DNA of 64,000 bases from an uncultured Gemmatimonadaceae bacterium (GCA_963781585.1 CAWAGQ010000004.1:960001-1024000), one strand, 5' to 3'; counted from the stretch's first letter, positions 1 to 62,977 are shown. Numbers and translations: made by a program. Notes: generated by a model from the sequence alone, not told the origin.

Positions 1-1195
1 GCGTGCGGAAGCGCGGGTGCACGCGCGCCATCACCGGCGGGAGCAGGCCATCGCGCGCCATGGAGAAGAAGATGCGTGGCTGCCCGAGCTGGAAGACCAG
101 GAGCACGCTGCCCATCGCGATCACCGCGCCCAGCGCGATGATGAACCGCGACGCATTGAGCAGGGCCGGCGGACCGTTGGCGAACTGCAGTGCGGTGATC
201 ATCGGCTCCGGCGTCCCCAGCTGGCGCCACGGTGCGATTCCCGTCAGTACCGCCGCCAGCGCGATGTACAGGACGGTGCAGACGATCAGACTCATTACGA
301 TGCCGAACGGCATGTCCTTCGCCGGATTCTTCGTCTCCTCGGCCGCGGTCGACACCGCATCGAATCCGATGTAGGCGAAGAAGATGATCGCGGCGGCCGC
401 GCTGACGCCGGCCGCGCCGTTAGGAGCGAATCCGCCAGTGGCGGGATTGGTCCAGTTCCCCGGGTGGATCAGGAAGGCACCGACCGCCAGGAAGAACAGG
501 ATGATCCCCACCTTCAGGACCACCATCGCGGTGTTGGTGTTTGCCGATTCCTTGATCCCGATGACCAGCAGGATCGTGATCAGGAAAACGACCGCCGCCG
601 CGGGCAGGTTGACGATGAACGGGATGCCCAGGAGGTGTGGGGCGGTGGTCCACGCCGACCCGAGAAACTGCATACTCGCGTCGGCGCCGCCGGCGGTCAC
701 GGCGTTGAAGGCGTCGTGGGCAGAGCGGTAGTCGGTGACCAGCCAGGCCGGAAGGCTGAGGCCGAAGTGGCTGATCAGCTCGAGGAAATGCCCCGACCAC
801 CCGATCGCCACGCCGATATTGCCGACCGCGTACTCGATGATCAGGTCCCAGCCGATGATCCACGCCACCAGCTCGCCCAGCGATGCATACGAATACGTGT
901 ACGCCGAGCCGGAGACCGGCACCATCGCCGCGAACTCGGCGTAGCAGAGCGCGGCGAACCCGCAGGCCACCGCGGTGAGCAGGAACGACAGCACGATCGC
1001 CGGGCCGGCACCAGGCCGCGCAGCGTCACCGACGATCGCAGTCCCGGTGGTGGCGAAGATCCCCGCCCCGATGGTCGCGCCGACACCCAGCGCGGTGAGC
1101 TGCCACTTGCCCAACGTCCGTTTCAGCCCGCCGCTGTGCGCTATGTCGGCCTCGAAATCGGCAACCGACTTGCGCGCGAAGAGATCGTTGGCCAC
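1..1195 (-). CDS. APC-family amino acid permease (3' end lies outside the window)
   Basis: Manual translation from GTG at 1195: MANDLFARKSVADFEADIAHSGGLKRTLGKWQLTALGVGATIGAGIFATTG...GPAIVLSF...CYAEFAAMVPVSGSAYTYSY; GGAGGG RBS upstream; missing from the ORF track because no stop lies in the window. Confidence 0.9.
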   Translation of the reverse strand, partial: MANDLFARKSVADFEADIAHSGGLKRTLGKWQLTALGVGATIGAGIFATTGTAIVGDAARPGAGPAIVLSFLLTAVACGFAALCYAEFAAMVPVSGSAYTYSYASLGELVAWIIGWDLIIEYAVGNIGVAIGWSGHFLELISHFGLSLPAWLVTDYRSAHDAFNAVTAGGADASMQFLGSAWTTAPHLLGIPFIVNLPAAAVVFLITILLVIGIKESANTNTAMVVLKVGIILFFLAVGAFLIHPGNWTNPATGGFAPNGAAGVSAAAAIIFFAYIGFDAVSTAAEETKNPAKDMPFGIVMSLIVCTVLYIALAAVLTGIAPWRQLGTPEPMITALQFANGPPALLNASRFIIALGAVIAMGSVLLVFQLGQPRIFFSMARDGLLPPVMARVHPRFRT

Positions 1196-1215
1196 CGATC
1201 ACCCTCCCCGGTGCA

Positions 1216-3780
1216 TCACGCCGTCACCCGCCCCGACCCCGCCGCAACGCCGCCCGGCGCGGGCTCGGCCTCGATGCGCATTCCGTAGAACGAGCGGACG
1301 ACGAACCCGATGGATATGGCGAAGAAGACCAGCGCCAGCGCATGGCTCAACACGTGTCCCCGCTCAGCCGCCAGATACACGCCCAGCTCCACGGCAAGCA
1401 GGCCGAACAGCGTGGTGAACTTGATTACCGGATTCATGGCGACCGACGAGGTGTCCTTGAACGGATCACCAACCGTGTCGCCGACCACCGTCGCGTCGTG
1501 GAGGTCGGTGCCCTTCAGCTTCAACTCGGTCTCGACGACCTTCTTGGCGTTGTCCCAGGCGCCCCCGGCGTTCGCCATGAAGATCGCCTGGAACAGGCCG
1601 AACAGCGCGATCGAAATCAGGTAACCGATGAAGAAGAACGGCTCGGCGAACGCAAACGCGAGCGTGGCGAAGAAGACGGCCAGGAAGATGTTGAACATCC
1701 CCTTTTGCGCGTACTGGGTGCAGATCTCCACCACCTTTCGCGAATCTTCCACCGACGCCTTGGTCACCCCTTCCAGGCGGATGTTGCGCTTGATGAATGA
1801 CACGGCCCGGTAGGCCCCGGTCGTCACCGCCTGGATCGACGCGCCGGTGAACCAGTAGATCATCGCGCCCCCGGTGATGAGTCCCAGCAGGAAAGGCGGG
1901 TGGAGGATGGACAGATTCGCCATCCCCTCGGTGAGGCCCTTGGTGAGCGCCATGATGATCGAGAAGATCATGGTGGTGGCGCCCACGACCGCTGTACCGA
2001 TGAGCACCGGCTTGGCCGTTGCCTTGAAGGTGTTGCCGGCGCCGTCGTTCTCCTCGAGCATCTCCTTGGCGACGGTGAAATCCGGGGTGAAATGGAAGTC
2101 GCGTCTGATCTCTTCGGCCACGCCCGGAATCGCCTCGATGGTGGACAACTCGTAGATCGACTGCGCGTTGTCCGTCACCGGCCCGTAGCTGTCCACCGCG
2201 ATCGTCACCGGTCCCATACCGAGAAAGCCGAACGCGACCAGGCCGAACGCGAACACCGCCGGCGCTTTCATGATGCCGCTGCTCAGGTCTCCTGTACTGA
2301 CGAAATACGCGATCGCCATCAGCCCCATGATCGCCATTCCCAGCCAGTAGGCAGAGAAGTTGCCCGCCACCAGTCCGGACAGGATGTTGAGCGACGCCCC
2401 GCCCTCCCGCGACGAGGTCACCACTTCACGCACGTGACGCGACTTCATGGACGTGAAGACCTTCACCATCTCCGGGATGATCGCCCCGGCCAGCGTGCCG
2501 CAGGTGATGACCAGCGACAGCTGCCACCAGAGCGCGCTGTTACCACCGAGGGTAGGGAGCGCGAACTTCGAGACCACGAACGTGAGCAGTACCGACACGA
2601 TCGAGGTGAGCCAGACGAGCTGCGTGAGCGGCGCCTCGAAATTCATCTTCCCCATGGAGCCGCCGTAGCGTGCCTTCGCGAGGCTGTCGTTGATCACGTA
2701 CGACAGGCCCGACGCGAGGATCATCATGATTCGCATCAGGAAGATCCACACCAGCAGCTGCGCCTGTACCGTGGTGTCCGGCACCGCCAGCACGATGAAG
2801 GAGATCAGCGCCACCCCGGTGACGCCGTAGGTCTCGAAACCGTCGGCCGTCGGGCCCACCGAGTCGCCGGCGTTGTCGCCGGTGCAATCCGCGATCACCC
2901 CCGGATTGCGGGCGTCGTCCTCCTTGATCTTGAAGACGACCTTCATGAGATCCGACCCGATGTCCGCGATCTTGGTGAAGATCCCGCCCGCAATACGGAG
3001 CGCGGAGGCGCCGAGCGATTCTCCTATCGCAAATCCGAGGAAGCAGGCCCCCGCCACCGACGTGGGAATGAACAGGAGGATGCCAAGCATGAACAGCAGC
3101 TCGACCGAGATGAGCATCATCCCGACGCTCATTCCGGCGCGCAACGGGATTGCGTAAACCGGGAAGGCCTTCCCTTCCAGGCTGGCGAAGGCGGTGCGTG
3201 AATTGGCAAGGGTATTGATCCGGATGCCGTACCAGGCAACCGAATAGCTGCCGAGCATCCCGATGAGACTGAAGAGGAGAATGATCAGGATCTTGGGAAG
3301 CGCGAGCCCGGTCACCTCGAAGTAGACGACGATGATCGCGCCAATGAAGGCGAAGAGGATCAGCAAAAACTTCCCCTGCTGCAGCAGATACGTCTTGCAG
3401 GTCTGGAAGATCAGCTCCGAGACTTCGGCCATGGAGCCGTGCACCGGCAGGTGCTTCACGCCGGAATAGGTGAAGGCGCCGAACAGCAGTCCGAGCACGC
3501 ACACGATCAGCCCGTAGAGCAGGATCCCGTGTCCCGTCATCCCGAGGAAGTTGCCTTGCCTGAGGTCGGGGAGCACGAGGTTGACCTCTCCCCCTGGCCG
3601 CTCCGCCTGAGCCGCGGCGGACGGTTGCTGCAGCACCGCCGCTGTCGCGGCCGCAACCGGGGTGGTCGTCCCCTGCTGTGCATGCGCATTCGGCACGAAG
3701 AGCGAAGCGGTCGCGCCCACGAACGTCACGGCCACAAGACACGGAACGACCCGTCGAAACCACCGATTCATCGTCATCAT
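1216..3780 (-). CDS. hppA: Membrane-bound H+-translocating pyrophosphatase, K+-independent/divergent type
   Basis: Motifs GGIFTKIADIGSDL, EDDARNPGVIADCTGDNAGD, DSYGPVTDNA, GNTFKA, GGAWDNAKK, GDTVGDPFKDTS; many TM segments; start may be 3777 or 3771. Confidence 0.95.
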   Translation of the reverse strand: MMTMNRWFRRVVPCLVAVTFVGATASLFVPNAHAQQGTTTPVAAATAAVLQQPSAAAQAERPGGEVNLVLPDLRQGNFLGMTGHGILLYGLIVCVLGLLFGAFTYSGVKHLPVHGSMAEVSELIFQTCKTYLLQQGKFLLILFAFIGAIIVVYFEVTGLALPKILIILLFSLIGMLGSYSVAWYGIRINTLANSRTAFASLEGKAFPVYAIPLRAGMSVGMMLISVELLFMLGILLFIPTSVAGACFLGFAIGESLGASALRIAGGIFTKIADIGSDLMKVVFKIKEDDARNPGVIADCTGDNAGDSVGPTADGFETYGVTGVALISFIVLAVPDTTVQAQLLVWIFLMRIMMILASGLSYVINDSLAKARYGGSMGKMNFEAPLTQLVWLTSIVSVLLTFVVSKFALPTLGGNSALWWQLSLVITCGTLAGAIIPEMVKVFTSMKSRHVREVVTSSREGGASLNILSGLVAGNFSAYWLGMAIMGLMAIAYFVSTGDLSSGIMKAPAVFAFGLVAFGFLGMGPVTIAVDSYGPVTDNAQSIYELSTIEAIPGVAEEIRRDFHFTPDFTVAKEMLEENDGAGNTFKATAKPVLIGTAVVGATTMIFSIIMALTKGLTEGMANLSILHPPFLLGLITGGAMIYWFTGASIQAVTTGAYRAVSFIKRNIRLEGVTKASVEDSRKVVEICTQYAQKGMFNIFLAVFFATLAFAFAEPFFFIGYLISIALFGLFQAIFMANAGGAWDNAKKVVETELKLKGTDLHDATVVGDTVGDPFKDTSSVAMNPVIKFTTLFGLLAVELGVYLAAERGHVLSHALALVFFAISIGFVVRSFYGMRIEAEPAPGGVAAGSGRVTA

Positions 3781-3952
3781 TCTCCGAGAGATAGAACCAC
3801 GACCCAGCGCGGCGCGCTCGACATCGCCGGCGGGCAGAGGAAGTCAGCACACGGTTGTGGAGCGTCGGTCAGAGCGGCCACGCTGCTGTGAGAAACCGGG
3901 TCGTGCTGGCGAGGGTAGGTCACCGGCGGGCGGGACAGCCGGGACCGGGCAC

Positions 3953-3983
3953 AAAAAATCCGGCGACAAGTTATCCTCGCCGG
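3953..3983 (-). terminator. Rho-independent terminator after the TonB-like gene
   Basis: Minus strand CCGGCGA-N10-TCGCCGG followed by ATTTTTT. Confidence 0.7.
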
Positions 3984-4016
3984 CGCCATCTTGCCAGACC
4001 TTTGCAGCCGTTGGCT

Positions 4017-4850
4017 TTACATCGCCTCAGCCGTCACGATCGCGATCGCCGTAATGGGTCGTCCGTCCAGACGTACCGCCGGGCGAAAACGGATCTCCAG
4101 CAGCATTTCCTTGATCCGGCGATTGTAGCCGGCGTCCCGCGACGGACTGAAGTCCAGCAACTTCGCATTCCCGAGAGTATCCACCTCGAATCGGGCCACC
4201 ATGCGGTACGGGCGCACCTTCGAGGGAATCGGCAGCGGAAGGATCGGCAGTGCCACCACACTCGGTGGATAGATGGTGTCCGATCCACCGCCGGTACCGG
4301 GCCCGTTCCCTGACCCTCGACCCGTTCCCACGCCCGATCCGACCCCTCCACCCCTTCCCGGCCCAGTCCCCGACGTGCCGTCCGTGCCCGTGCCGCCTGT
4401 CGCCGCCCCCGAGATGGAGTCGAGAACAGCCATCGGTGCGGGCACCGAGGGCGGAATGGGAGCCGGCTCGGGTTGCTTCACCTCGGGCGGCAGCTTCTTG
4501 ACCTCGACCGGCTTCTTCACCGGTTCAGGTTCTGGACGCTTTTGCTGGGGGATCGAGAGCTGAAGGTACCGGAGGCGCTCGCGCGCCTTGAGCTCCGGGA
4601 TCCCGCCGCCGCGGTTTCCACCGCCACCGCCCCCCGAGGGTCCGGCCCCTCCGGCGCCCAGGGGCGTCGGGGCGGCGAGGCGCGAGATGACCAGAGTGGG
4701 GGCAAGAACGAGTAGGATGATCAGGACATGGAGCAGCACCGAGGCGACCGTAGCTCGCGCCCGAGGTTCTCCGCGCAGCGGGATCCCGATTGGCGGCCGG
4801 TAGGGTGGCCTCGATAGCGTGCCTGTGTCAGGCGGCTGCGGCTGCGTCAT
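4017..4850 (-). CDS. TonB-like energy transducer (TM anchor, Pro/Gly-rich linker, TonB_C-like end)
   Basis: SVLLHVLIILLVL anchor with SxxxH motif, PEPEPVKKP and Gly-rich linker, C-terminal MVARFEVDTLGNAK...IRFRPAVRLDGRPI; follows exbD genes; start ATG 4850 (track start 4892). Confidence 0.7.
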   Translation of the reverse strand: MTQPQPPDTGTLSRPPYRPPIGIPLRGEPRARATVASVLLHVLIILLVLAPTLVISRLAAPTPLGAGGAGPSGGGGGGNRGGGIPELKARERLRYLQLSIPQQKRPEPEPVKKPVEVKKLPPEVKQPEPAPIPPSVPAPMAVLDSISGAATGGTGTDGTSGTGPGRGGGVGSGVGTGRGSGNGPGTGGGSDTIYPPSVVALPILPLPIPSKVRPYRMVARFEVDTLGNAKLLDFSPSRDAGYNRRIKEMLLEIRFRPAVRLDGRPITAIAIVTAEAM

Positions 4851-4907
4851 GTGGGGGAGTGGGTGCTGGACGAAGACGGTTGGCGTCTTCACGGCGGCAC
4901 ACCACGG

Positions 4908-4948
4908 AAAATAGTACGGCGGGTGAACCCTGAAGGTTCACCCGCCGT
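4908..4948 (-). terminator. Terminator hairpin after tonB-exbB-exbD-exbD
   Basis: Perfect 14-bp inverted repeat ACGGCGGGTGAACC/GGTTCACCCGCCGT (4916-4948), followed on the minus strand by ACTATTTT. Confidence 0.7.
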
Positions 4949-4982
4949 GGATGGGGCGGCAGCTTCGGCGTTCGCCGCGCCG

Positions 4983-5396
4983 CTACTCGGTGGACTTGGG
5001 AGGCACGCCAATCACCTTCACGCCGGCGCCGCGCGCCACGTCCATCGCCCAGATCACGTCCTGATATTTCACCGCCGGATCGCCCTTCACGAACATGATC
5101 TTGTCGGGCCGTGGGTCGTAGATCTCCTTGAGCTTCCCGGGGAGCTCATCCTTCGTGTACGCCGTCTTGTTCACTGCGAACTGGCCGCCGGGCAGCACCT
5201 CGAGCACGATCTGCTGATTGTTTTGCTGATCCTTCTGCTGCGGCGCGTCCGGATCGGGCAACTGCAGATCGATGGCGCGCCGGAGCATGGGCTGGATGAC
5301 CATGAAGATGATCAGCAGCACCAGCAGCACGTCGATCATTGGCACGACATTGGGCTCGTTCTTGAGGCCCTGAGCCCCCATCGACATTCCGGCCAT
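4983..5396 (-). CDS. exbD: Biopolymer transporter ExbD/TolR
   Basis: EPNVVPMIDVLLVLLIIFMV motif; VKGDPAVKYQDVIWAMD. Confidence 0.92.
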   Translation of the reverse strand: MAGMSMGAQGLKNEPNVVPMIDVLLVLLIIFMVIQPMLRRAIDLQLPDPDAPQQKDQQNNQQIVLEVLPGGQFAVNKTAYTKDELPGKLKEIYDPRPDKIMFVKGDPAVKYQDVIWAMDVARGAGVKVIGVPPKSTE

Positions 5397-5414
5397 TTAT
5401 CGAGTTCTCCGTCG

Positions 5415-5888
5415 TTATGGCTTCTTGGTTCCCTTTTCCTTGTCGGCCAGCGGATCGTCACCCACCACCGTCGAGACGGTGCCCGGGATCTGGTCGGCAA
5501 TGGCGCCCACCACCCGCACCCCGTTCTTCGACGCGAGGTCCATCGCATCGATCACCGCCGAGTACGGCAGGTCCTTGTCCGCCTTGACGTACAACACGTG
5601 GTCGTCGCGGTTGGCGTAGATCCGCTTGAGGGTCTCGCCGAGTGTGTCTTCCGCAATCGGCCGCTTGTTCAGGTAGAACTTGCCATCCTTGTCGATGCCG
5701 AGCACCTGGTCCGCGTCTTCCTCCGGATGGCCCTTCAGGTTCTGGCCCTGGGGAGGAATGGCGGTGAAGCCCGCCGCCAGTGCGGGGGTCACGACCATGA
5801 AGATGATCAGGAGCACCAGCATGACGTCGATCATGGGCACGACGTTAGGCTCCGCCTTCACGCCGCCGATTCCGACTGCCATTCCCAT
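5415..5888 (-). CDS. exbD: Biopolymer transporter ExbD/TolR (second paralog)
   Basis: EPNVVPMIDVMLVLLIIFMV; VKADKDLPYSAVIDAMD. Confidence 0.92.
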   Translation of the reverse strand: MGMAVGIGGVKAEPNVVPMIDVMLVLLIIFMVVTPALAAGFTAIPPQGQNLKGHPEEDADQVLGIDKDGKFYLNKRPIAEDTLGETLKRIYANRDDHVLYVKADKDLPYSAVIDAMDLASKNGVRVVGAIADQIPGTVSTVVGDDPLADKEKGTKKP

Positions 5889-5925
5889 GGGAGAAGTCCG
5901 TTAAGAGTGTGCGCTGATGAGTCGG

Positions 5926-6663
5926 TTACGAGGAGATCGGGCCGCCGGCCGAGGCCTGCGTGTTGAACTCGCGGGTGAAGCGCGAGCGGCCGAACTCTCC
6001 GGACACGCCCTTGATGAGATAGTCGATCATTTCCTTGGACGTGTACGTCATCTCGGCCGTCAGGTTGTCGACCTTGGTGGTGAAGTAGTTGTAGAACCAC
6101 ACCGCCGGGATGGCCACGATCAGTCCGAATCCGGTTGCGATCAGGGCCTCGGCGATACCGGCGGCGATGGCGGTGATACCACCGGAGCCGGAACGGGCCA
6201 TGCCGTTGAACGCGTTGATGATGCCGAACACCGTGCCGAGCAGGCCGACGAACGGAGCCGTTGCGCCCACCGTGGCAAGAACGGCAAGGCCGCGTTTCAA
6301 CTGCACCAGTTCCATGAGCATCTCACGTTCCACCGCGCGTTCCGCCGTGTTGATGTCGGACACGGTAATCGAACCGTCCATGATGAGCGGTTTCACCTCG
6401 CCCAGCGCACCGCCCAGCACCCGCGCGACGTGCGACTTCTTGTAGCCCTCGGCGAGCTTGATGGCCTCGGTGAGGTTGTCCTCTTCCAGGAACTGCGAGA
6501 ATTCAGGCGCAAACTTGACCGTTTCCTTCTGCGCCTTGCGGAGGTTCCACCACTTCCCGATGGCCACCGAGAGTGACCACACCGACATGAAGAGAAGGAT
6601 GGCCCACAGGAGTTTTCCGAAGATCGGTGTCTTGGCCCAAATCTCGGCAAGTGAAATGTTCAT
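5926..6663 (-). CDS. exbB: MotA/TolQ/ExbB proton channel
   Basis: LATVGATAPFVGLLGTVFGIINAF...GIAEALIATGFGLIVAIPAV motif. Confidence 0.93.
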   Translation of the reverse strand: MNISLAEIWAKTPIFGKLLWAILLFMSVWSLSVAIGKWWNLRKAQKETVKFAPEFSQFLEEDNLTEAIKLAEGYKKSHVARVLGGALGEVKPLIMDGSITVSDINTAERAVEREMLMELVQLKRGLAVLATVGATAPFVGLLGTVFGIINAFNGMARSGSGGITAIAAGIAEALIATGFGLIVAIPAVWFYNYFTTKVDNLTAEMTYTSKEMIDYLIKGVSGEFGRSRFTREFNTQASAGGPISS

Positions 6664-9990: not shown

Positions 9991-10635
9991 TCACTGGGGG
10001 CTGCGTGGAGCCGGCCGCACTAAGCCGAATTCCCGGATCTTCCGGTACAGGGTCTTTGAGGATATCCCGAGAATGCTGGCGGCGCGACCCTGATGCCAGC
10101 CGACGGCCTCCAGCACCCGCCGAATGTGGTCCCGTTCGACGTGTTCGAGCGGGACAAGTGTCGGTTCGCCACCGCCGTTTCCTGCCGACACCGTTGAAGG
10201 GTCCCCCGGCCGGATCCCGTCGTGGTCGGAGTGGTGCGCCGCCTTCGAGCGCATGAGGTGGCGGCGCTCGCCGGCACGACGGACGACCAGTTCCAGTTCA
10301 GCGAGCGGGCAGGGCTTGGACAGGACGTCGTAGGCACCCAGCTGAACCGCGCTGAGTGCCATCGCATGCGTGCGGCTGCCCGTCAGGACGATCACCTCCG
10401 GAGGGTCCGGCTGAGCGCGCACGCGCCGCAGTACCTCCAGCCCATCGACCTCCGGCATGAAAATGTCGAGCACGACCACATCGAACTGCTCTTCGGCCAG
10501 CCGGCCGATTGTTGAGCGCCCGTCGTGCGCCACGCAAACCCGATAGCCGCACGACTCCAGATGGTCGGCCAGAACGCGCGCCAGCGGCGCCTCGTCCTCG
10601 GCGATGAACACCCGAATCCGATCGTCGCCTGTCAT
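9991..10635 (-). CDS. Response regulator: REC domain plus Fis-type HTH, no AAA+ domain
   Basis: AEDE, LDIFMPEVDG, GAYDVLSKP, short linker, LEHVERDHIRRVLEAVGWHQGRAASILGISSKTLYRKI. Confidence 0.88.
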   Translation of the reverse strand: MTGDDRIRVFIAEDEAPLARVLADHLESCGYRVCVAHDGRSTIGRLAEEQFDVVVLDIFMPEVDGLEVLRRVRAQPDPPEVIVLTGSRTHAMALSAVQLGAYDVLSKPCPLAELELVVRRAGERRHLMRSKAAHHSDHDGIRPGDPSTVSAGNGGGEPTLVPLEHVERDHIRRVLEAVGWHQGRAASILGISSKTLYRKIREFGLVRPAPRSPQ

Positions 10636-12179
10636 GCCACTGCCGCGATGCCGGGCAGGATGATCCGGAACGTGCTGCCGGCACCCACCGCACTGTCGAC
10701 TTCGATGCGCCCGCCATGGTCCGCGATGATGCCGTAGCAGATCGACAGACCCAGGCCCGTTCCCCGGCCCGGCGGCTTGGTCGAGTAGAACGGCTCGAAG
10801 ATCTTGGGAAGGTCGATACGCGCGATGCCATGCCCTTCGTCCACAACCTCGGCGATCACGCCCTCGGACTCAGACAGGCCGCGACGCGTACGGATCGTCA
10901 CGTGCCCCGCATCGCTCATCGAATCGACGCCATTGATGAGCAGCGCCATGAACACCTGCACCAGCTGTTCGGCATTCGCGTTCACGTTGTCGATGCCGGC
11001 ATCGAGCAGCATGTGCATCTGGACCTTCTTGAAGCGGGCGTGATGCTTCACCAGGAAGACCGTCTGCTCGATGACCGCGTTCACATCAGTGACCTCCTTC
11101 CTGGCGGACTTCGGGCGCGAGAAGTCGAGCACGCCGTCCACGATGTGCTTGCAGCGGTCCACCTCGTTGTCGATAATGCGAAGGAATTCCGACGTCTGCG
11201 CGGGAACCTCGCACCCCTGCTTGCGCAGATCGTCGAGGCGCAGGGTGAGACTCTCGGCGCAGGCGGCGATCGTCGCCAGCGGATTGTTGATCTCGTGCAT
11301 GATGCCGGCGGCAAGCTGCCCGATTGCCGCGAGCTTCTCGGACTGGGCGAAGCGCTCCTGGGCCGCGGTCCAGTCGGTGATGTCCTCACCGATCGAAATG
11401 ACATGGGTGATGGCCCCGTCGTTCACCCGCATCGGGATCTTCGTGATGCGATAGGTGCGAACCTGGCCGCTCGCTTCCGACTCGATGTTGAACTGCTGGA
11501 TGCGACCCGTGCGGAAGACGTCGTCGAAGTCTTTCCGCAGCGTCTCCCGCGACTGCCGGTACAGGATCTCGAAGATGGTCTTCCCAAGCGCATCGTCGCG
11601 TGCGACCCCCTGGATTCCGGTCTCGCGATTCCGATTCCACGCCTGCACCCGGTACTCGCCGTCGATGACGTAAAGGCCGACCGGGAGCGAGTCGATGATC
11701 TTCTGCGTGAATCGGCGTTCCGAATCGATCTGACGGGTCCGCAGCCCGACCTCTTCGCTCAGCTGGTGAAGTTGTTCAGCGTGAGCGAGCGCGGGCGCGA
11801 GCAGGGTTCCGATGATGCCGAAGAGTTGCCGGGACGCGGGTTCGAACACACCGGACAGACGAAGCACGATCGCGCCAAGGCGCCGGTTGCCGGACTCGAG
11901 GGGGCACAGATGCGCGCCGGCCTGGTCCGTCGCCTCCGAGTCAACGAGAGCCTGCACCGCCGTCGCGTCGATCTGCGCCTCGCCCGACAGCGACGCGCAG
12001 ACCAGGCCCGAGGCGCCGTACAACCACAAGCTGCACTCGTCCGCGGAGAAGGCGCTGCGGGTGACATCGAGGATGCTGCGGGCCTTGTGCACCACATCTT
12101 CGTCGGAGGCGACGTGGGAGGCGATGTCGGCAAGAACCGTGAGGGGAGGCGGCGTCGCCGCCGCGAGAGTGGCATTCAT
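10632..12179 (-). CDS. Cytoplasmic GAF-like/PAS sensor histidine kinase (NtrB-like)
   Basis: PAS (IIDSLPVGLYVID), SEKLAAIGQLAAGIMHEINNPL, FEPFYSTKPPGRGTGLGLS; start 12179 because the longer track ORF overlaps the tRNA. Confidence 0.92.
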   Translation of the reverse strand: MNATLAAATPPPLTVLADIASHVASDEDVVHKARSILDVTRSAFSADECSLWLYGASGLVCASLSGEAQIDATAVQALVDSEATDQAGAHLCPLESGNRRLGAIVLRLSGVFEPASRQLFGIIGTLLAPALAHAEQLHQLSEEVGLRTRQIDSERRFTQKIIDSLPVGLYVIDGEYRVQAWNRNRETGIQGVARDDALGKTIFEILYRQSRETLRKDFDDVFRTGRIQQFNIESEASGQVRTYRITKIPMRVNDGAITHVISIGEDITDWTAAQERFAQSEKLAAIGQLAAGIMHEINNPLATIAACAESLTLRLDDLRKQGCEVPAQTSEFLRIIDNEVDRCKHIVDGVLDFSRPKSARKEVTDVNAVIEQTVFLVKHHARFKKVQMHMLLDAGIDNVNANAEQLVQVFMALLINGVDSMSDAGHVTIRTRRGLSESEGVIAEVVDEGHGIARIDLPKIFEPFYSTKPPGRGTGLGLSICYGIIADHGGRIEVDSAVGAGSTFRIILPGIAAVA

Positions 12180-12349
12180 GTCCGGAGGATTGGAGACCGC
12201 CCCCGAGACGAGGGGGGTTCGGACAGAATGACCGGTCAGGCACCGTCCAAGTAACGCCGGGCGGCGTTCAGCGGCAGGCGGGGTGGAGCCGCCGTCACTG
12301 CGCCCGGGTCGGTGCTCCTGAATACGTGCCAGGTAGGACCGACGGCGAG

Positions 12350-12422: not shown

Positions 12423-12441
12423 GAATGTCTTGCGAATGCCA

Positions 12442-12469
12442 AACTTAGCGACGCACGAGGTCGCATCAA
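12442..12469 (-). promoter_or_regulatory. Putative sigma70 promoter of tRNA-Ala
   Basis: TTGATG-N16-TAAGTT about 20 nt upstream of the tRNA 5' end. Confidence 0.45.
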
Positions 12470-52610: not shown

Positions 52611-54485
52611 GTGAATCTCTCGATCATGCCGGACCCCGCGGCGAAACACGCGATAGGCGACTACGGCATGATCGGCGACTGTCGCAGCGCCGCGCTGATT
52701 TCGCGCTACGGGAGCCTGGATTGGCTCTGCTGGCCGGCTTTTGACAGCCCGTCGCTCTTTGCCGCGCTGCTCGATCAGGAACGCGGCGGTCACTTTCGGG
52801 TGACGCCGCGCGGCGGCGTGCGCAGTGTGCGGCGACGCTACGTCGGCGACACCGCGGTTCTCGAAACCGAATTCCAGACCGACACCGGCCTTGCACGGGT
52901 GACGGATTTCATGCCCGTCGCCTCCACGGAGGAGCGGCGCAGGCTCCTGACGCCCGACTGCCACGTCCTGCGCGTCCTGGATGGTCTCGACGGTGAAGTC
53001 GAATTCGAGATCGAGTGTCGTCCCCGGCCCGACTTCGCCCGGGTGACACCGCGGCTGATCGATCGAGGCGCCCTCGGTTTCTTCTTCGAGCACGGCGCGC
53101 GCGTCACGATAGTGCGCGCTGACCTGCCGCTGGAGTCGAGCCCCGCGGACGCGGCCGTACGGGGTCGGGTGCGCCTCCGCGCGGGCGAGCGACGCGCGGT
53201 GGCACTCGCCCACAGTGACCGCGAGATCGCGGTGCTACCAGCGCTGGGCACCACGGTCGAGCTTCGGCTTCGACAATCGCTCGCGTGGTGGAATCGCTGG
53301 GCCGCCCGCTGCTCCTACGAGGGAAAGTGGCGCGAGACCGTGATGCGCAGCGCATTGACCCTCAAGCTGATGTGCTTTGCGCCCTCGGGCGCGGTGGTCG
53401 CGGCTCCGACGACGTCGCTGCCCGAGAAGCGTGGCGGTACGCGCAACTGGGACTATCGATACTGCTGGGTGCGCGACGCCTCGCTGACGATGCAGGCGCT
53501 GTTCGACCTCGGCTACTCCCAGGAGGCCGCCGCTTTCGTCTCCTGGCTGATTCACACCACCAAGATCACCAGGCCGGCGCTGCAGATTCTGTACGATGTC
53601 TACGGCGGGGCACATCTCCACGAGCAGGAGCTTGCGCACCTGCGCGGGTTCGACGGAGCGCGTCCGGTTCGCGTGGGGAACGCCGCGTACACCCAGTTGC
53701 AGCTCGATGTCTACGGGGAAGTGATCGACGCGGTGTACGAGTTCCAGAGCCGCGGTGGCGAACTCGACGCCGCGAGCCGCGCGATGCTGCGAGCCTGGGG
53801 CTCGATGGTGACCAGGCACTGGATGGAACCGGACGAAGGGATCTGGGAGGCCCGGGCGGGCCGTCGGCATCACACGCATTCCAAGGTCATGTGCTGGCTG
53901 GCGCTCACGCGCCTGCTGCAACTGGCTGACGCCGGTGAACTGAAGATCGACAGGGACCACTACCGGACCGTGCAGCGCGCCATCCGCGAGGCCGTGGACG
54001 CGCGCGGGTACAATACGGACTTGCAGTCCTACGTGAGCGAGCTTGATGGCGCCGAGGTGGATGCAAGCCTGCTGCTGCTGGCGCGCTTCGGCTACGAGGA
54101 CGCCGCCTCGGAGCGAATGGCCGGTACCTACCGGCTGATCGAACAGCGGCTCGGCCGCAACGGCCTGCTGTACCGGTACTGCTATCCGGACGGCCTTCCC
54201 CCGGGCGACGGCGCGTTCGGGATCTGCAGTTTCTGGCAGGTCGACTACCTGGCGCGCGCCGGCCGGCTCGACGACGCCCAGCGGCTGTTCGAGCAGTTGC
54301 TCGGGTTCGCCAATGATCTGGGTCTCTACGGCGAGGAGATCGATCCCGACGACGGCGAGGCGTTAGGCAATTTTCCCCAGGCCTTCACCCACGTCGGACT
54401 GATCGACGCCGCGCTCACCATCGAGGACCGCGGCGGTGGCAAGGCGCGCGGCAGCCGCCAACCCGGGACCAAAACGCTCCAGTGA
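52611..54485 (+). CDS. Glycoside hydrolase family 15 (trehalase/glucoamylase-like)
   Basis: IGDCRSAALI, AAPTTSLPE, RNWDYRYCWVRD, DEGIWE, LGNFPQAFTH; start may be ATG 52626. Confidence 0.93.
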   Translation: MNLSIMPDPAAKHAIGDYGMIGDCRSAALISRYGSLDWLCWPAFDSPSLFAALLDQERGGHFRVTPRGGVRSVRRRYVGDTAVLETEFQTDTGLARVTDFMPVASTEERRRLLTPDCHVLRVLDGLDGEVEFEIECRPRPDFARVTPRLIDRGALGFFFEHGARVTIVRADLPLESSPADAAVRGRVRLRAGERRAVALAHSDREIAVLPALGTTVELRLRQSLAWWNRWAARCSYEGKWRETVMRSALTLKLMCFAPSGAVVAAPTTSLPEKRGGTRNWDYRYCWVRDASLTMQALFDLGYSQEAAAFVSWLIHTTKITRPALQILYDVYGGAHLHEQELAHLRGFDGARPVRVGNAAYTQLQLDVYGEVIDAVYEFQSRGGELDAASRAMLRAWGSMVTRHWMEPDEGIWEARAGRRHHTHSKVMCWLALTRLLQLADAGELKIDRDHYRTVQRAIREAVDARGYNTDLQSYVSELDGAEVDASLLLLARFGYEDAASERMAGTYRLIEQRLGRNGLLYRYCYPDGLPPGDGAFGICSFWQVDYLARAGRLDDAQRLFEQLLGFANDLGLYGEEIDPDDGEALGNFPQAFTHVGLIDAALTIEDRGGGKARGSRQPGTKTLQ

Positions 54486-56951: not shown

Positions 56952-58145
56952 TCACCGGTTGCCAACGTTGTATTTCGCGAGGATTTCACGCACGCGATCG
57001 AGCGGAAGCGCCTGCACCGTCCGGCCGCGGCTGGTGACGGTCGTGGCCATGAACAGCGAGTTGTAGATCGCTTCCTCGGTTGCTTCCACCACGCCCTCGA
57101 ACAACCCCGACATGTCGTCGTTCGACAGATCCTCGAGCTGCCGCCGCAACGGACCGGACGCGGTACGCGTCTGCGCCGGGCGTCGTCGCACCGACTCGGC
57201 TGTCGAAAAGGCGATGACGTAGTCGCCCGATCCGTTCGAGGCCGACGACCCGGTGCGTGCGAGTCCCATGAGGGCCCGCGCCCCCAGACGATCGAGGTTT
57301 CGATCCGAGAGCGGCGCATCGGTGGCCACGACGATCATGATCGATCCGTCTCCGTGGTCGCGCTCCGACTGGTTCCTGAAGGCATACTGTCCGAGCTCCT
57401 TGCCGACGGGCGCTCCCAGCACCTGGAGGATTCCGCCGAAGTTGGTCTGCACCAGCACCCCTACCGTGTATCCGCCTAACGATGCCGGCAGGATGCGGGA
57501 CGAGGTCCCGATGCCGCCTTTCCATCCGAACGCCACCGTGCCCGCCCCCGCCCCGACCGCCCCTTCCGCCACCGGTCCGTTGCTGGCGGACTCGAGCGCC
57601 TGACGGACGTGCTCGGGGCGGATTGGCCGTGACCGAATGGCATTGAGCTGCCCGTCGTTGGTTTCTCCGACCACCGGGTTGATCGACTGCACGCTCTGCA
57701 TCCCCGGCTGGTCCAGTAGCCAGGCCACCATCGCGTCGGCTGCCTGCCACACGCACAGGGTACACGTGAGCAGGATGGGCGTTTCCAGTTCCCCCAGCTC
57801 GGTGACCTGCGTCACGCCGAGCAACTTGCCGAACGCGTTGCCGACGTGAACCGCAGCCGGCACCCGATCGAAGAACAGGTTGCCCTCGTGGGGCAGGACG
57901 GCGGTCACGCCGGTGTGCACCGAGTCGCCCTCAATGACCGTGGCGTGTCCAACGCGCACGCCGGCCACGTCGGTGATAGCGTTGTTCGCCCCCGGTTTGA
58001 ATACGCCCGGGGCGACGCCCAGGTCACGGGCGCGCACGCGCGCGGAGCTGGAAGGGACGGACTGCGCGGTGACCGCGCCGGGATGAAGCATCGACAGGAG
58101 GGCGGTCGCGAGCGCCGCACCGCCCAGAGGGCACAGGTATCGCAT
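56952..58145 (-). CDS. dmpA: P1-family (DmpA) aminopeptidase, secreted
   Basis: NAITDVAGVRVGH, PVVGETND, EGAVGAGAG, GWKGGIGTSSR, DG/SIMIVVATDAP autoprocessing site, SNGSGD. Confidence 0.9.
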   Translation of the reverse strand: MRYLCPLGGAALATALLSMLHPGAVTAQSVPSSSARVRARDLGVAPGVFKPGANNAITDVAGVRVGHATVIEGDSVHTGVTAVLPHEGNLFFDRVPAAVHVGNAFGKLLGVTQVTELGELETPILLTCTLCVWQAADAMVAWLLDQPGMQSVQSINPVVGETNDGQLNAIRSRPIRPEHVRQALESASNGPVAEGAVGAGAGTVAFGWKGGIGTSSRILPASLGGYTVGVLVQTNFGGILQVLGAPVGKELGQYAFRNQSERDHGDGSIMIVVATDAPLSDRNLDRLGARALMGLARTGSSASNGSGDYVIAFSTAESVRRRPAQTRTASGPLRRQLEDLSNDDMSGLFEGVVEATEEAIYNSLFMATTVTSRGRTVQALPLDRVREILAKYNVGNR

Positions 58146-58223
58146 GGACCATCCGCGGCATCGGTTGCCCGCGATATAGTGGACGCCCCGGCGACGGCGC
58201 AAGCCGCGACCGGTCACTGCCGC

Positions 58224-60726
58224 TCAGGTCCGACGGAGTGCAGCCGCCGGTTCCACGCGGGCGGTGCGCCGCGCCGGGAGGTAGCAGGCCACCAGGGCAA
58301 CCGACGTGAACAGCGTCGCCACCGATGAATAGGTCAGGACGTCCACCGGCGTCACGCCCCACAGCAGCCTGGTCAACACCCGGGTCAGCGCGGCGGCCAA
58401 GACCAATCCGGTTCCCACGCCCCACAGCACCAGGCGCGCTCCATCGCGAACTACGAGTGCGACGATAGTCGACGCGTGCGCCCCGAGTGCCATGCGGATC
58501 GCGAGTTCCCGCGAGCGGCGCGCGACGGCATAGGCGCATACTCCGTAGATGCCGATCAGGGCCAGGACGAGCGCGCAGAGGGCGAATGAACCTACCACGC
58601 CTCCGAGCATCCGGACGAGGGAGAGTCCATCCTGTCGTTCCGTCGCCAGCAGGCGGACCCCCGCCGGCGCGAGCTCGGGGTCGACCGAGTGCAGCGCGTC
58701 GACCACCCGAGCCGCAACCGCGTCTGGATCGCCGGCAGGTCCGCACCAGCACGCCGGTATTCCACGCCGTGGCCTGTCGCTCGGAGAGGTACAGGTCCGG
58801 ATCGGGATCGGCGTTCACGATCCCCATGCGGCTGGACAGGCGGCGGACATCGCGCACGACGCCGACCACCGTGAGCGGTGTCCCTAACGCGCCGATCTGC
58901 ACCTGCTGGCCAAGCGGAGACGCGCCGCCCCACACCAGCCGCGCGAGGCGTGCGCTGACCATGACGACTGGTTCGCTCTCGGCACGATCGCCGCGATCAA
59001 AGCTCCGCCCCTGCGTCACCCCCATCCCCATCACGCGAAAGTACTCGTCCGACACCACCAGGAACTGCGGCGACGGCTGAACGCCCGCCGCAACGCTCCG
59101 CGTCACGTCGGCTGGAAGGAAGAGGCGACGGTCCGGCGTGTTCGGTAAGGCACCGGTGCTGTCGGTCCCACGATTGCGCCGCGCGCCGCGCTCGAGGTTC
59201 GTGGAGTCCGCGATGAGCTCATTCAACCCACCCTCGCGCGCCACACCCTGGATTCCCGGTGTGGCCTCGAGCCGCGCGGCGAGCTGCTCCTCAAAGGTCT
59301 GGCGCTGGTTCGCACCGGCGTACCCGGTGGAATCCAGGTTGACGGAGAGCCGGAGGACACGCTCGGGGTGATAGCCCGGGTCGAGCGCCGTCACGTTGTG
59401 GTAGGTACGCGCGAGCAGCGCCGCACCGACAGAGAGCACGATGGTGAGCGCCAGTTCCGCCACGATGACGCTGCGGCCACGGCGGGTGCCGCGCCCGGCG
59501 GTCGCCGACAGATCCCCGCTCTCCTTGAGGGTGTCCGTGAGATCCACTCTGGTGGCCACCAGCGCCGGCAACAGGCCGACGCCCGCCACCGTGAGGAGAG
59601 CGATGGTGAAGGTGAAGGCCAGGACGCGCCAGTCGATCCCCAGCCGGATCCACGATGGAAGATTCCCGTGCGGTACCACGATCCCGACCAGGTGCACCCC
59701 CCAGTCAGCCAGCAGCGCGCCGAGCGCACCGGCGAGGAGAGCCAACAGCAGACTCTCGGTGAGATTCTGGCGAATCAGCCGCGCGCGAGAGGCCCCCAGC
59801 GATGCGCGAATCGCCATCTCCGCACGACGTTCTTCGGCACGCGCGAGAAGCAGGTTGGCCACGTTGGAGCAGGCCACGAGCAGCACCACGAGAGCGGCTC
59901 CGATCACCAACGCAGCGAACGATCCCCACGCTCGGGCTCCACGGTCCACCATGCCGTCCCGCACCGCGAGGGACCAGCCACCATAGTCGGCTGGTCTTGC
60001 GGCCGCGAGCTGCTGTCCAACCAGTCGTATTTCTTCGCGGGCACGGCTCAGCGTAGCGCCGGCGGCCAACCTTGCGATCGCCGAGTAGTTGCGATCGACC
60101 TCGCCAACATTCGATGTGGCAGGTGGAGCCAGCGGAAGCCAGACGTCCGAACGCTCGTCGAACCGAAAACCCGGTGGCATCACCCCCACGATCCGGCGGA
60201 TGCTTCCATTCACCGTGAGGCTCTGTCCTATGACATCGGCGCGCGCCGCGTAGTACTGTCGCCACAGCGAATCGCCGATGAGAACGATGGGCTCGCGATT
60301 GGTAATCTCCTGTGGCGTGAACGGGCGTCCTACGGCCGGCGCCGTCCGCAGCACGGCCAGGAGGTCCCCATCGATCTCCGTACCGGTGACCCCGATCGCC
60401 TGGCCGCCGACCGACAACCGGGAATACGTCTCCCTGAAGACCGCGACGCGTTCGAACGCCGTAACGCTCTGCCGTACGGCCTCGATGCCCGATAGAGAGA
60501 CGCGGCTGAAGGCAATGTAGGCCCGCGGATTCGTCTCGCTCAGCGCCACGATTCTTCGCGAATCCGCATATGGGAGCGGGCGAAGGAGCGCACTGTTCAC
60601 GAAACTGAAGAAGGTGGTCACCACGCCGATTCCCACGGCAAGCGTGGCCACGGTGGTTGCCGCAACGCCCGGACGCGCCACAATCCCGCGCAGTGCGACG
60701 CGAATATCATGACGGGTGGCGTCCAT
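58224..60726 (-). pseudogene. ADOP-type duplicated ABC permease with a one-base frameshift near 58738
   Basis: Frame reads ...NTGVLVRT then goes out of character; removing one base restores AGDPDAVAARVVDALHSVDP...GIYGVCAYAVARRSRELAIRMALGA...VEPAAALRRT (track ORF 58224..58706). Confidence 0.8.
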
Positions 60727-60943
60727 CTGGCCTCCTCGGCGAAGCGGACTCCATGATCATAGCGCCCGTCTCCGGACGCGGGCGAGGTAGGCCATGCTCG
60801 CACTGGTCCGCCGGGAATCGACCCGCGAGACGACCAGGTCGTCGCGTGGCGAATTGGTGGTGGCTCGGGCTCTCCGATGGCCGATCACAGGTCCCAACGG
60901 TGCGCGCATGGTCCGGGTCCCACTGCCCCATTAGCGTTCGCGG

Positions 60944-61666: not shown

Positions 61667-61678
61667 GCTGAAGGAGCG

Positions 61679-62977
61679 TCACGCCGTCGGGCGCGCCGGG
61701 GCGTCCCCCATCCCGCCACGTGGACTCACTCCGGACAGCGCGGCGATCTCTCCCTCCCGATCGGCCGCTCGTCCCTCGAGTCGTGCCACGAGCAGTCCCG
61801 CGCCGGCATAGCTGGTCACGTTGAGTACGGTCTTGAAGATGTCGGGGATGAGATCCACAGCGATGAGAATGCCAAGTCCCTCCGGCGGCAATCCGACCGC
61901 GGTGTAGAGGGGCGCCTGCACGAAGAATCCGCCACTTGGAATGCCCGGGACGGCAAACGACAGCACGATCGTCCCGACGCAGAACACCACCAGCTTCGCC
62001 CCGGAGAACTCGACGCCGTACAGCCGGGCCACCAGGAGCGCGCCGAGGAGCCAGTTCATCGGCGCATTGAGCTTGAAGATCGATGCGCCCAGCGGGAGGA
62101 CGAACCCCGTGACCGATTCGGAGAGGCCCAGCTTGCTCCGGGTATCGCTCATCAGCACGGGCAACGATGCCAGCGACGAGCGCGAGGTGACGGCGACAGT
62201 CTGCGCCGGAATCAGGGCCGCGGCGAACGTACGCAGGGGGACCCGCGCCCCCCGGGCCGTGATAACGTAGAGCATGCCTAACGCAATGATCAACAGGAGG
62301 CACACGGCCACGATGTAGTAGCCGATGGCCCCGACGCCCGCGATGCCCAGATGGGCCCCCACCGCCACCGCCAGACCGAAGACGCCGATCGGAGCCGCCG
62401 CCAGCACCCAGCGAATCACTTGCGACATGGCCTCGGCCACCCCGCGCAGGAACAGCACGTGCGCGCTTCGCACGCCTTCCGACACCCGTGACAGCGCGAG
62501 TCCGTACGCGAGGCTGAAGATCACCAGCGGCAACAGAGCTCCGTCGGCAGCGGCCCCCACCGGATTCGCCGGAATCAGCGTCAGGAACCAGTCCTTCAGC
62601 GACAGCTGCTGGAGCACCGACGGATCGATCTGCGCAGTTCGCCGCAGGGCCTCGGTGCTGGCCGGGTCAAGTCGGAGGTTGGCCATCAACGCCACCGCAG
62701 CCGGACTCATGATGACTTCGAAGAACGTCTGCAGCACCAGGAACACCGCAAGTGTGCGAAAGGCCAGCGATCCCACCGTCCGCACGTCGCGTGCCCCTCC
62801 GATGGCGGTCACGAGAAGGCAGACAATGAGCGGGAGGACAGGCATCCGAATGGCATTCACCCAGATCGTCCCGATCGGCTCGAACACCCGCGGGACGAAG
62901 GTGTCGCGCAAGAGCGCGCCGGCGATGAAACCGGCGAGCAGGGCGATGGCGACATGAGCGGCAGACTTTCGCGACAC
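61679..62977 (-). CDS. Dicarboxylate/amino acid:cation symporter (GltP/DAACS family)
   Basis: IWVNAIRMPVLPL, LIPANPV, TSRSSLASLP, FVLPLGAS, IAVDLIPDIFKTVLNV; start GTG 62977. Confidence 0.9.
   Translation of the reverse strand: MSRKSAAHVAIALLAGFIAGALLRDTFVPRVFEPIGTIWVNAIRMPVLPLIVCLLVTAIGGARDVRTVGSLAFRTLAVFLVLQTFFEVIMSPAAVALMANLRLDPASTEALRRTAQIDPSVLQQLSLKDWFLTLIPANPVGAAADGALLPLVIFSLAYGLALSRVSEGVRSAHVLFLRGVAEAMSQVIRWVLAAAPIGVFGLAVAVGAHLGIAGVGAIGYYIVAVCLLLIIALGMLYVITARGARVPLRTFAAALIPAQTVAVTSRSSLASLPVLMSDTRSKLGLSESVTGFVLPLGASIFKLNAPMNWLLGALLVARLYGVEFSGAKLVVFCVGTIVLSFAVPGIPSGGFFVQAPLYTAVGLPPEGLGILIAVDLIPDIFKTVLNVTSYAGAGLLVARLEGRAADREGEIAALSGVSPRGGMGDAPARPTA

Follow-up and report, generated by a model that had tools for sequence, protein, structure and literature searches.

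A dispersed DNA word of Gemmatimonadaceae has the sequence of the integron core site

Only a few very abundant DNA words are known in bacteria (DNA uptake sequences, Chi, the FtsK-orienting polar sequences [KOPS], and the highly iterated palindrome HIP1), and each of them revealed a machine that reads DNA along the whole chromosome. A 64-kb stretch of DNA from an uncultured Gemmatimonadaceae bacterium (GCA_963781585.1, CAWAGQ010000004.1:960001-1024000), here called the window, carries a further word of this kind, the heptamer CCTAACG, or CGTTAGG on the other strand, and the question that it raises is what this word is and what might be reading it. We find that the word is as strong as an uptake sequence, that it forces rare codons and changes proteins, and that letter for letter it matches the core site of integrons, the gene-capture systems chiefly responsible for the spread of resistance cassettes. 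Its spread was followed through the 64-kb window, through 79 related genomes, each represented by about 20 kb, and through two replicons of the cultured relative Gemmatirosa kalamazoonensis (700 kb and 50 kb).

RESULTS

The heptamer exceeds what composition, codon usage, and protein sequence predict

The heptamer occurs 21 times in the window, 15 times as CCTAACG and 6 times as CGTTAGG on the plus strand, and our recount placed every copy at the coordinate and on the strand given by an earlier, sequence-only reading of the window. That reading had put the chance expectation at about 7 copies, which is too high: dinucleotide-preserving shuffles of the window held 2.57 ± 1.84 copies (maximum, 10), and none of 100 reached 21. 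Genes were called with our own codon-usage caller trained on Pfam-confirmed open reading frames (ORFs), and two genes were added by hand. When the amino acid sequences and the codon usage of each gene were preserved, the 20 genic copies compared with 1.67 ± 1.18 (maximum, 7 in 500 shuffles), and this null is conservative because the rare codons of the motif itself stay in the pool. The shuffle had been named beforehand as the test that could refute a DNA-level signal, and it does not do so.

With these gene calls, the split of the copies among codon frames came out as previously described, with 14 copies read as xCG-TTA-GGx, 5 as CCT-AAC-G, 1 as GTT-AGG, and 1, at 47290, lying between genes. 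TTA codons are concentrated at the word, the context CG-TTA-GG holding 14 of the 20 TTA codons of the window genes, while the motif spells 14 of 71 [SPTA]-L-G and 5 of 17 P-N-[VADEG] tripeptides. The two exbD paralogs of the window illustrate the choice, in that the same EPNV peptide is encoded by GAG CCT AAC GTC in one and by GAG CCC AAT GTC in the other. The window has a G+C content of 64 to 71%, and 21 of its 26 CTAA/TTAG tetramers lie inside the motif; the others are those at 10020, 12445, 37396, and 60931, together with the variant CCTAACC (word at 35387, its CTAA at 35388), as first reported. One-base variants at heptamer positions 1, 6, and 7 occur 0 to 1 times each. The copies are as follows.

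418 to 424, minus strand: CCT-AAC-G in an amino acid permease gene (2-1195, minus)
5843 to 5849, minus strand: CCT-AAC-G (EPNV) in an exbD paralog (5415-5888, minus)
15210 to 15216, plus strand: xCG-TTA-GGx in a cytochrome c gene (14549-15241, minus)
16566 to 16572, plus strand: xCG-TTA-GGx in an NrfD-like (ActC-like) gene (15752-17197, minus); same column in related loci L002, L038, and L040
18332 to 18338, plus strand: xCG-TTA-GGx in an ActB-like gene (17197-20229, minus); common to L011, L016, and L064, with ILP or LLP in most orthologs
19409 to 19415, plus strand: xCG-TTA-GGx in the ActB-like gene (minus); in the window only, among the aligned orthologs
20817 to 20823, plus strand: xCG-TTA-GGx near the start of a multihaem cytochrome gene (20237-20860, minus)
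21789 to 21795, plus strand: xxC-GTT-AGG in a gene at 21111-21899 (minus)
22186 to 22192, minus strand: CCT-AAC-G in an amidohydrolase gene (21896-22804, minus); same column in L038, L064, L014, L027, and L009
24633 to 24639, minus strand: CCT-AAC-G in a SpoU-type methylase gene (24232-25011, minus)
25498 to 25504, plus strand: xCG-TTA-GGx in a gene at 25008-26846 (minus)
27352 to 27358, plus strand: xCG-TTA-GGx in a gene at 26874-27845 (minus)
31048 to 31054, plus strand: CCT-AAC-G in an ABC permease gene (30526-31332, plus)
31534 to 31540, plus strand: xCG-TTA-GGx in a GH38 gene (31458-34046, minus)
32791 to 32797, plus strand: xCG-TTA-GGx in the GH38 gene (31458-34046, minus)
35387 to 35393, plus strand: near-copy GCCTAACC, deviating in the last base
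45426 to 45432, minus strand: xCG-TTA-GGx in an amidohydrolase gene (45056-46411, plus)
47290 to 47296, plus strand: the sole intergenic copy
54361 to 54367, minus strand: xCG-TTA-GGx in a GH15 gene (52611-54485, plus)
57475 to 57481, plus strand: xCG-TTA-GGx in a peptidase S58 gene (56952-58145, minus)
58883 to 58889, plus strand: xCG-TTA-GGx in a MacB/FtsX-type permease gene (minus), limits set by hand
62277 to 62283, plus strand: xCG-TTA-GGx in a dicarboxylate symporter gene (61679-62977, minus)

The copies are unevenly placed: 13 lie between 15.2 and 32.8 kb, in contrast to the 12.6 kb from 32798 to 45425, which holds none despite 13 unoccupied [SPTA]-L-G sites and has an ordinary G+C content at third codon positions (GC3). 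Many long, spurious antisense ORFs of the window stop at the TAA of the motif (for example, those ending at 15214, 16570, 19413, 21793, 27356, 32795, and 57479).

The full word is an 8-mer and acts at the level of DNA

The related loci were collected by a protein scan with the ActB-like protein, one genome being kept per species, which gave 79 loci (57 to 78% identity) as syntenic pieces of about 20 kb. All but one come from metagenome-assembled genomes of Gemmatimonadaceae, Gemmatimonadales, or Gemmatimonadota, the exception being L024, which is titled "bacterium"; the genome of the window itself is outside the 79.

A G precedes the heptamer in 16 of the 21 window copies, as the sequence-only reading had noted, and in 102 of 136 copies pooled from the window and the related loci, counting those far enough from the sequence ends. 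It does so in every frame class (44/55, 25/36, 10/14, and 9/11) as well as between genes (14/20, the intergenic copies being read by eye from the list), and the full word is therefore the 8-mer GCCTAACG, or CGTTAGGC on the other strand, with the heptamer at its center. Outside the 8-mer, the flanks of the pooled copies show codon periodicity only. Across the window, the related loci, and Gemmatirosa, the word is found in all four stop-free frames, on both strands, and in spacers, and no single peptide or codon context accounts for it. The excess over codon- and protein-preserving shuffles is repeated in 15 motif-positive related loci (89 copies observed versus 6.5), and an order-3 Markov model of 17 pooled positive sources predicts 3.5 copies of CGTTAGGC, where 98 are observed.

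Two simpler origins of the word were considered and rejected. Decay of CGTCAGG by C-to-T change is one, but it would replace amino acids, and the excess of GCCTGACG in the pooled sequences agrees with the frequent codons CTG-ACG. The other is selection for antisense stops; the frame xGC-CTA-ACG likewise gives a stop in the codon-aligned antisense frame, yet it is rarely used. The frames are in fact occupied unevenly, the 8-mer taking up, in Gemmatirosa, 97 of 172 possible CCT-AAC-G sites (56%) and 159 of 660 xCG-TTA-GGC sites (24%) but only 14 of 417 xxC-GTT-AGG-C sites (3.4%) and 12 of 271 xGC-CTA-ACG sites (4.4%). Going from CTG to CTA takes one change and going from CTG or CTC to TTA takes two, and CTA is no rarer outside the motif than TTA (63 versus 57 codons in Gemmatirosa).

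A cultured relative carries the dispersed word together with an integron

G. kalamazoonensis, a harmless soil bacterium that is in culture and has a finished genome, combines the dispersed word with an array of at least 67 attC sites. The first 50 kb of its plasmid 1 hold 30 copies, with 39 of 45 CTAA/TTAG tetramers lying in CCTAAC, nearly all of them preceded by G; the initial 50-kb stretch of plasmid 2 has 20 copies. Outside the integron described below, 367 copies in 550 kb give a density of 6.67 per 10 kb. A repeat offset of about 53 kb is visible between the two stretches that cover plasmid 1 from 1 to 100 kb (L080 and L081) and matches the tandem repeat described in the genome paper (PMC3974934); for this reason, the counts of density, frame, and polarity exclude L081, which is included in the 650-kb tally. 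The genic copies outside the array number 284 versus 16.8 ± 4.3 in 60 codon-preserving shuffles (maximum, 28), and the motif context accounts for 160 of 217 TTA codons, 160 of 660 [SPTA]-L-G tripeptides, and 97 of 209 P-N-[VADEG] tripeptides. Copies between genes make up 83 of the 367, compared with about 10% of noncoding DNA, and the spacing is slightly more even than random (coefficient of variation, 0.89; 22 gaps of less than 150 bp versus 34 expected).

The region of plasmid 1 from about 810 to 856 kb holds an array of small ORFs, and between them lie repeats of about 100 bp that open with GCCTAACG and close with CGTTAGGC. There are 67 attC-like units in the 50-kb stretch L091, and 13 strong matches to a covariance model continue the array into positions 1 to 6170 of the stretch L093. 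Fifty aligned repeats gave the consensus GCCTAACG ... CGTTAGGC, in which AACG and CGTT are invariant, and this consensus folds into a 23-pair hairpin with compensatory changes at 13 pairs and unpaired bases inside the stem. Beside the array lies an integron integrase gene (TIGR02249; E value of 7.8e-127, 423 bits against a cutoff of 265), whose product is about 51.6% identical to class 1 IntI1; among the matches listed, all but the self-match are of the IntI1 type. The element on plasmid 1, an integrase with an array of attC-bounded cassettes, is thus an integron, and the available part of the IntegronFinder 2.0 paper (PMC9024848) names it among the largest integrons on replicons labeled as plasmids.

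Several details of this element may be recorded here. The integrase gene occupies L093 6827-7786, with the cassettes on the same strand and the array past its 3' end (L091 10.3-50 kb and L093 1-6170; plasmid 1, about 810 to 857 kb); in the usual integron layout the integrase gene is divergent from the array. The outer bases of R'' and R' are often mismatched within one attC site, as expected because the last six bases would come from the neighboring cassette. Several cassette ORFs, as called by our own gene finder, stop at the TAA of the attC inverse core. Off the main array, L093 has a small attC group at about 29.3 to 32.2 kb, a possible case of insertion at one of the dispersed sites, with two full model matches and one half site, which adjoins an ORF with an NYN domain and is near a Cass2/GyrI-like ORF; an ORF of 792 amino acids ends in the TAA of one of these attC sites. 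Just outside the array, the P-type ATPase gene L091 6804-9557 (plus strand) contains five motif copies in 2.7 kb, all in one orientation and frame class.

The interiors of the cassettes are nearly free of the word: the 46-kb array holds 75 copies, of which 71 form attC ends. In cassette ORFs the word stands at 1 of 33 [SPTA]-L-G tripeptides, compared with 160 of 660 elsewhere, and GC3 is 0.84 versus 0.94. Three reasons for this scarcity may be considered: the cassettes may be too young or too foreign for the bias, internal cores may be harmful through the action of the integrase, or cassettes may be born between neighboring dispersed sites.

The word is identical to the integron core site, and the window copies are solitary

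The available text of one paper describes the attC ends as R'' = RYYYAAC and R' = GTTRRRY and gives the R'' of the aadB cassette as GCCTAAC (PMC12901181). GCCTAAC fits the inverse core pattern and GTTAGGC fits the core pattern, and among the 16 words that make up RYYYAAC, GCCTAAC alone is enriched, with 457 copies in 600 kb of Gemmatirosa, 17 in the window, and 92 in the motif-positive loci, whereas motif-negative loci have 1 copy in 128 kb and 5 copies in 623 kb. Judged by its sequence, then, the dispersed word consists of the integron core site and one further C:G pair, which never varies in the Gemmatirosa attC sites. By our own estimate, the chance that an unrelated 8-mer would match the core pattern is well under 1%. 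A related word, GCCCAACG, which is one transition away and also occurs as an attC variant, is somewhat raised in number (Gemmatirosa, 84 copies in 600 kb; motif-negative loci, 0 in 128 kb and 37 in 623 kb).

The likeness to the integron goes no further than the core site in the window. The dispersed word has the same sequence as the commonest R-box variant of the Gemmatirosa attC array, including the flanking C:G pair, but the window copies stand alone inside genes, without an L box, an inverted partner, a hairpin, or a nearby integrase. An attC site forms a hairpin with extrahelical bases from an imperfect inverted repeat (R''-L''...L'-R'), about 55 to 140 nucleotides long. The covariance model built from the 50 Gemmatirosa attC sites found no match at an E value of 1 or less in the window or the 79 loci, all 15 of its strong matches lying in L093 (13 in the continuation of the array and 2 near 31 kb). 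Inverted core pairs 45 to 150 nucleotides apart were sought in the window and the 79 loci, and none was found. A tblastn search with the Gemmatirosa integrase returned only the self-match from the window, the 79 loci, and the Gemmatirosa stretches, and a protein search of a plasmid collection returned no further Gemmatimonadota plasmids. The window copies are solitary duplex core sites with no second binding box or hairpin, and they are not attC sites. They are not remnants or scars of cassettes either, as the motif sites are in frame and at aligned positions of conserved genes rather than at gene ends.

In the literature searched for the heptamer and the 8-mer as whole words, we found no published account of the dispersed word; where the heptamer occurred inside longer words, the matches listed were apparent primers or oligonucleotides. 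Papers that combine attC with Gemmatimonads, judged by their titles and the starts of their abstracts, included none about a dispersed core site, and the available part of one survey merely lists Gemmatimonadota among the integron-bearing phyla (PMC8618304).

The word marks one subclade and is continually gained and lost

The word is absent from 56 of the 79 related loci and dense in others (10 copies in 7.1 kb of L030, 16 in 23 kb of L038, 13 in 23 kb of L002, and 11 in 15 kb of L032). Eleven of the 56 word-free loci are as GC rich as the window; CTAA itself is nearly absent from them, and they use the word at 0 of 91 [SPTA]-L-G and 0 of 26 P-N-x sites. A search of the 56 motif-negative loci for other overrepresented words turned up only homology-driven recurrences, with no second dialect and no other RYYYAAC word. 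In a FastTree phylogeny of the single protein ActB (74 tips, midpoint rooted, supports not inspected, six loci omitted for want of a usable gene call), all loci with two or more copies fall into a single 28-tip clade. The word is missing from 10 of these tips, four of them represented by 7 kb or less, and in the other clade a single copy is present in 4 of 46 tips. The word is the signature of one high-GC Gemmatimonadaceae subclade, lineage restricted and patchy.

Individual sites are common within subclades (the window with L011, L016, and L064; L030 with L032; L002 with L038; and L003 with L008, L009, and L014) and mostly unlike between them, only a few conserved P-N-x or S-L-G positions bearing the word across several subclades. 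In the ortholog site listings, some sites were counted twice, since some loci have one longer gene where the window has two. The two most similar loci, L030 and L032, are 87.6% identical at the nucleotide level over 6,327 aligned bases; they have 4 sites in common and 6 that are not shared, about what neutral decay predicts for a heptamer. The unshared sites often differ by 2 to 4 bases within the word, with flanks that are 86 to 92% alike. Residues are replaced as well at motif sites (ALG where most orthologs have ILP or LLP, PNV in place of RGT, and PNA in place of GEP or LAR), and P-N-[VADEG] occurs 1.03 times per 1,000 codons in Gemmatirosa versus 0.46 in motif-negative relatives. The sites are not conserved beyond neutral expectation while changes toward the word are concentrated, a combination that points to a continuing directional process.

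Gene content and other features of the window

Pfam searches of the window genes identified an H+-pyrophosphatase, an ExbB/ExbD/TonB set, an alternative-complex-III-like operon, and MacB/FtsX permeases with PadR. The alternative-complex-III-like operon (13221-21061, minus strand) comprises a multihaem cytochrome, a molybdopterin/4Fe-4S subunit, an NrfD-like membrane subunit, and a cytochrome c and is syntenic in the 79 related loci. One MacB/FtsX-type permease (58027-60756, minus strand) lies in two overlapping frames, this ORF having a MacB_PCD domain and one FtsX domain and the ORF at 58227-58814, in another frame, having the second FtsX domain, which suggests a frameshift or a sequencing error near 58.7 to 58.8 kb. 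The only tRNA gene of the window, for tRNA-Ala(TGC) (12349-12422, minus strand), is just upstream of the called histidine kinase gene at 10632-12179 and within a longer ORF that starts with ATG (10632-12560).

DISCUSSION

The enrichment of the word, its DNA-level nature, its distribution within one clade, its identity with the attC core, its lack of polarity, and its turnover are direct observations, and they bear out the view of the sequence-only reading that a signal under selection or drive, rather than a protein motif or a codon habit, is at work; the shuffles, the spread over frames and spacers, the equally GC-rich relatives without the word, and the residue replacements all agree on this. 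What that reading missed is the identity of the word with the integron core site, GTTAGGC/GCCTAAC. That the identity is a causal one is an inference, as are the reader of the word and the origin of the bias. We propose a DNA-level drive tied to the integron system, in which the integron integrase, or another protein that shares its specificity, recognizes the word on duplex DNA, and we consider this proposal as likely to be right as wrong. Word-bearing DNA would gain an advantage in transmission or retention during exchange among relatives, much as uptake sequences do under molecular drive. Copies would arise in intact genes by directed base substitution, both synonymous and amino acid changing, and would be lost about as fast as neutral sequence, so that a continuing genome-wide bias, and not a function of each site, would sustain their number.

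A number of points weigh against this proposal. Neither an integrase gene nor an attC site is present in the window (Pfam, 92 ORFs) or in the 79 loci, and the link to integrons comes, as far as sequence comparison goes, from one cultured relative. The attC sites of Gemmatirosa tolerate GGCT, GTCT, GCCC, GCCG, and GCAT as their outer four bases, where the dispersed word has almost only GCCT; the dispersed word is stricter in these bases, and its reader would therefore be stricter than attC recombination needs. The uneven use of frames, 56% and 24% for two of them and 3 to 4% for the others, is not predicted by a pure DNA model, and a frame-linked cost or benefit is superimposed on the DNA-level signal. 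No integrase reaction is known to us by which a core site could enter a gene other than through an insertion, and nicking there should wear the word away rather than spread it. Moreover, the secondary integrase sites called attG are described, in the available part of the study that reports them (10.1101/2022.09.11.507474), as needing only GWT and flanking motifs that are unlike attI and attC.

The alternative that resembles our observations most in its anatomy is a strict DNA uptake sequence, that is, a competence receptor that binds GCCTAACG and favors word-bearing fragments from conspecifics, with molecular drive doing the rest. The DNA uptake sequences of Neisseriaceae and the uptake signal sequences of Pasteurellaceae are short and nonpalindromic, number hundreds to thousands per genome, fall into several frames, are specific to lineages, and are scarce in mobile DNA, and the dispersed word is like them in these respects, being strongly overrepresented in both orientations, within and between genes. 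Among the analogies that had been listed from sequence, this unpolarized type is the one that fits, and the polarity of Chi and KOPS and the palindrome of HIP1 do not; a site of adenine methylation finds no support in the methylome of the cultured relative. A nonpalindromic 8-mer in both orientations and all open frames, with amino acid changes at variable positions, is what uptake would produce; the sense-strand ratio of CGTTAGG to CCTAACG (189:126 in genes and 73:90 between genes, in 650 kb of plasmid 1), the slightly more even spacing, the intergenic excess of 83 in 367, the patchy and lineage-restricted distribution, and the scarcity of the word inside cassettes are in accord with it too, and a strict 8-base specificity beyond what attC needs would suit a separate reader. 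If the uptake word were unrelated to the integron, however, the core match would be a coincidence of well under 1%, since only 16 of 8,192 heptamer classes fit RYYYAAC; the eighth base matches as well, and no other variant is as common as the word in the resident array. The dispersed word also differs from the known uptake sequences in being that of a site-specific recombinase, uptake bias, a receptor, and competence are suggested here by analogy, and inverted pairs at gene ends were not found in the window or the 79 loci. The literature searched gave no paper in which Gemmatimonads and DNA uptake sequences are mentioned together, and we know of no competence or uptake in Gemmatimonadota. A variant would accommodate the attC identity, either because the array made the word common and a receptor followed or because the attC sites were pulled toward an uptake word. 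Altogether, a strict uptake sequence is possible but less likely than not.

The remaining alternatives fare less well. A methyltransferase target with biased repair, of the HIP1 or very-short-patch kind, or a site for a nucleoid or decoy protein under weak selection would agree with the patchy distribution among relatives that is typical of accessory enzymes, and solitary cores could even each take up a single integrase monomer, stay uncut, and thereby buffer the free enzyme. HIP1 resembles the word in being a very abundant octamer within genes whose abundance is lineage specific, but it is a palindrome tied to methylation sites, whereas GCCTAACG is not its own reverse complement and is absent from the published 6-methyladenine motifs of Gemmatirosa. 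The single-molecule real-time methylome of G. kalamazoonensis includes RGATCY, ATGCAC, and CCAGN7TCA as its only 6-methyladenine motifs, and the word is outside these three (PMC3974934; 6-methyladenine only, 5-methylcytosine not assessed). Individual sites are not conserved beyond neutral expectation, and a benefit per site of one part in thousands would seem too small to pay for rare codons and amino acid changes, which makes this group of explanations improbable. A polar signal of the Chi or KOPS kind, oriented by replication and read by RecBCD/AddAB or FtsK, is very improbable. Chi and KOPS are, like the word, overrepresented nonpalindromic 7- to 8-mers; the density of about 1 copy per 3 kb is within the range of Chi, the window has a strand bias of 15:6 together with negative GC skew in all 16 of its subwindows, and Gemmatirosa has a weak excess on the presumed leading strand (169:130). 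The orientation nevertheless tracks the sense strand of genes and not the replichore, for CGTTAGG is on the leading strand in 65% of cases in co-oriented genes, 44% in head-on genes, and 57% between genes in Gemmatirosa (the last two not significant; replichores assigned by the sign of a weak GC skew), and for the window and 16 loci, sense-strand ratios of 62:41 (genes on the strand of ActB) and 5:2 (genes on the other strand) were obtained. Once gene strand is accounted for, the word has no replication polarity, and a polar signal would leave the identity with the attC core unexplained. That the word is a by-product of protein motifs, codon habits, or chance has a practically negligible probability: most copies do lie in two frames that encode common tripeptides, but the shuffles (1.67 versus 20 in the window, 6.5 versus 89 in the 15 loci, and 16.8 versus 284 in Gemmatirosa) refute this explanation, equally GC-rich relatives never spell the same tripeptides with the word, and there are copies between genes.

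Returning to a drive tied to the integron system, its boldest form would be a core site sown through the chromosome every 1.5 to 3 kb, at which the integrase could dock, insert cassettes, and cut out host segments almost anywhere. Class 1 to 3 integrases, according to the available part of the attG study, insert at double-stranded genomic sites and excise at nearby ones (10.1101/2022.09.11.507474), and these experiments make such a scheme possible. As attG sites are described there, they share with the dispersed word a double-stranded, genomic position outside integrons, and the word contains the GTT cleavage triplet; attG, though, was defined experimentally in Escherichia coli, has a consensus of only GWT plus flanks, and is not reported to be enriched, while the dispersed word is a candidate by its sequence. 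A cassette inserted at one dispersed site and excised via the next would leave with an attC site attached to a host gene, and the near absence of the word from cassettes is what this route predicts. We think it unlikely that the chromosome is used in this way; if it were, it would provide a specific way for new gene cassettes to form, and their origin is, to our knowledge, still unexplained.

Our findings raise the questions of whether an integrase reads solitary cores all along a chromosome and whether host genes are turned into cassettes in this manner. Should the reader prove to be a competence receptor instead, this would be the first uptake-sequence-like system outside the Proteobacteria known to us, and it would suggest that repeat arrays can give rise to uptake words. 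In either case, the identity of the two sequences hints that the genomes of these Gemmatimonadaceae are marked throughout for the integron machinery, or for something that reads the same word.

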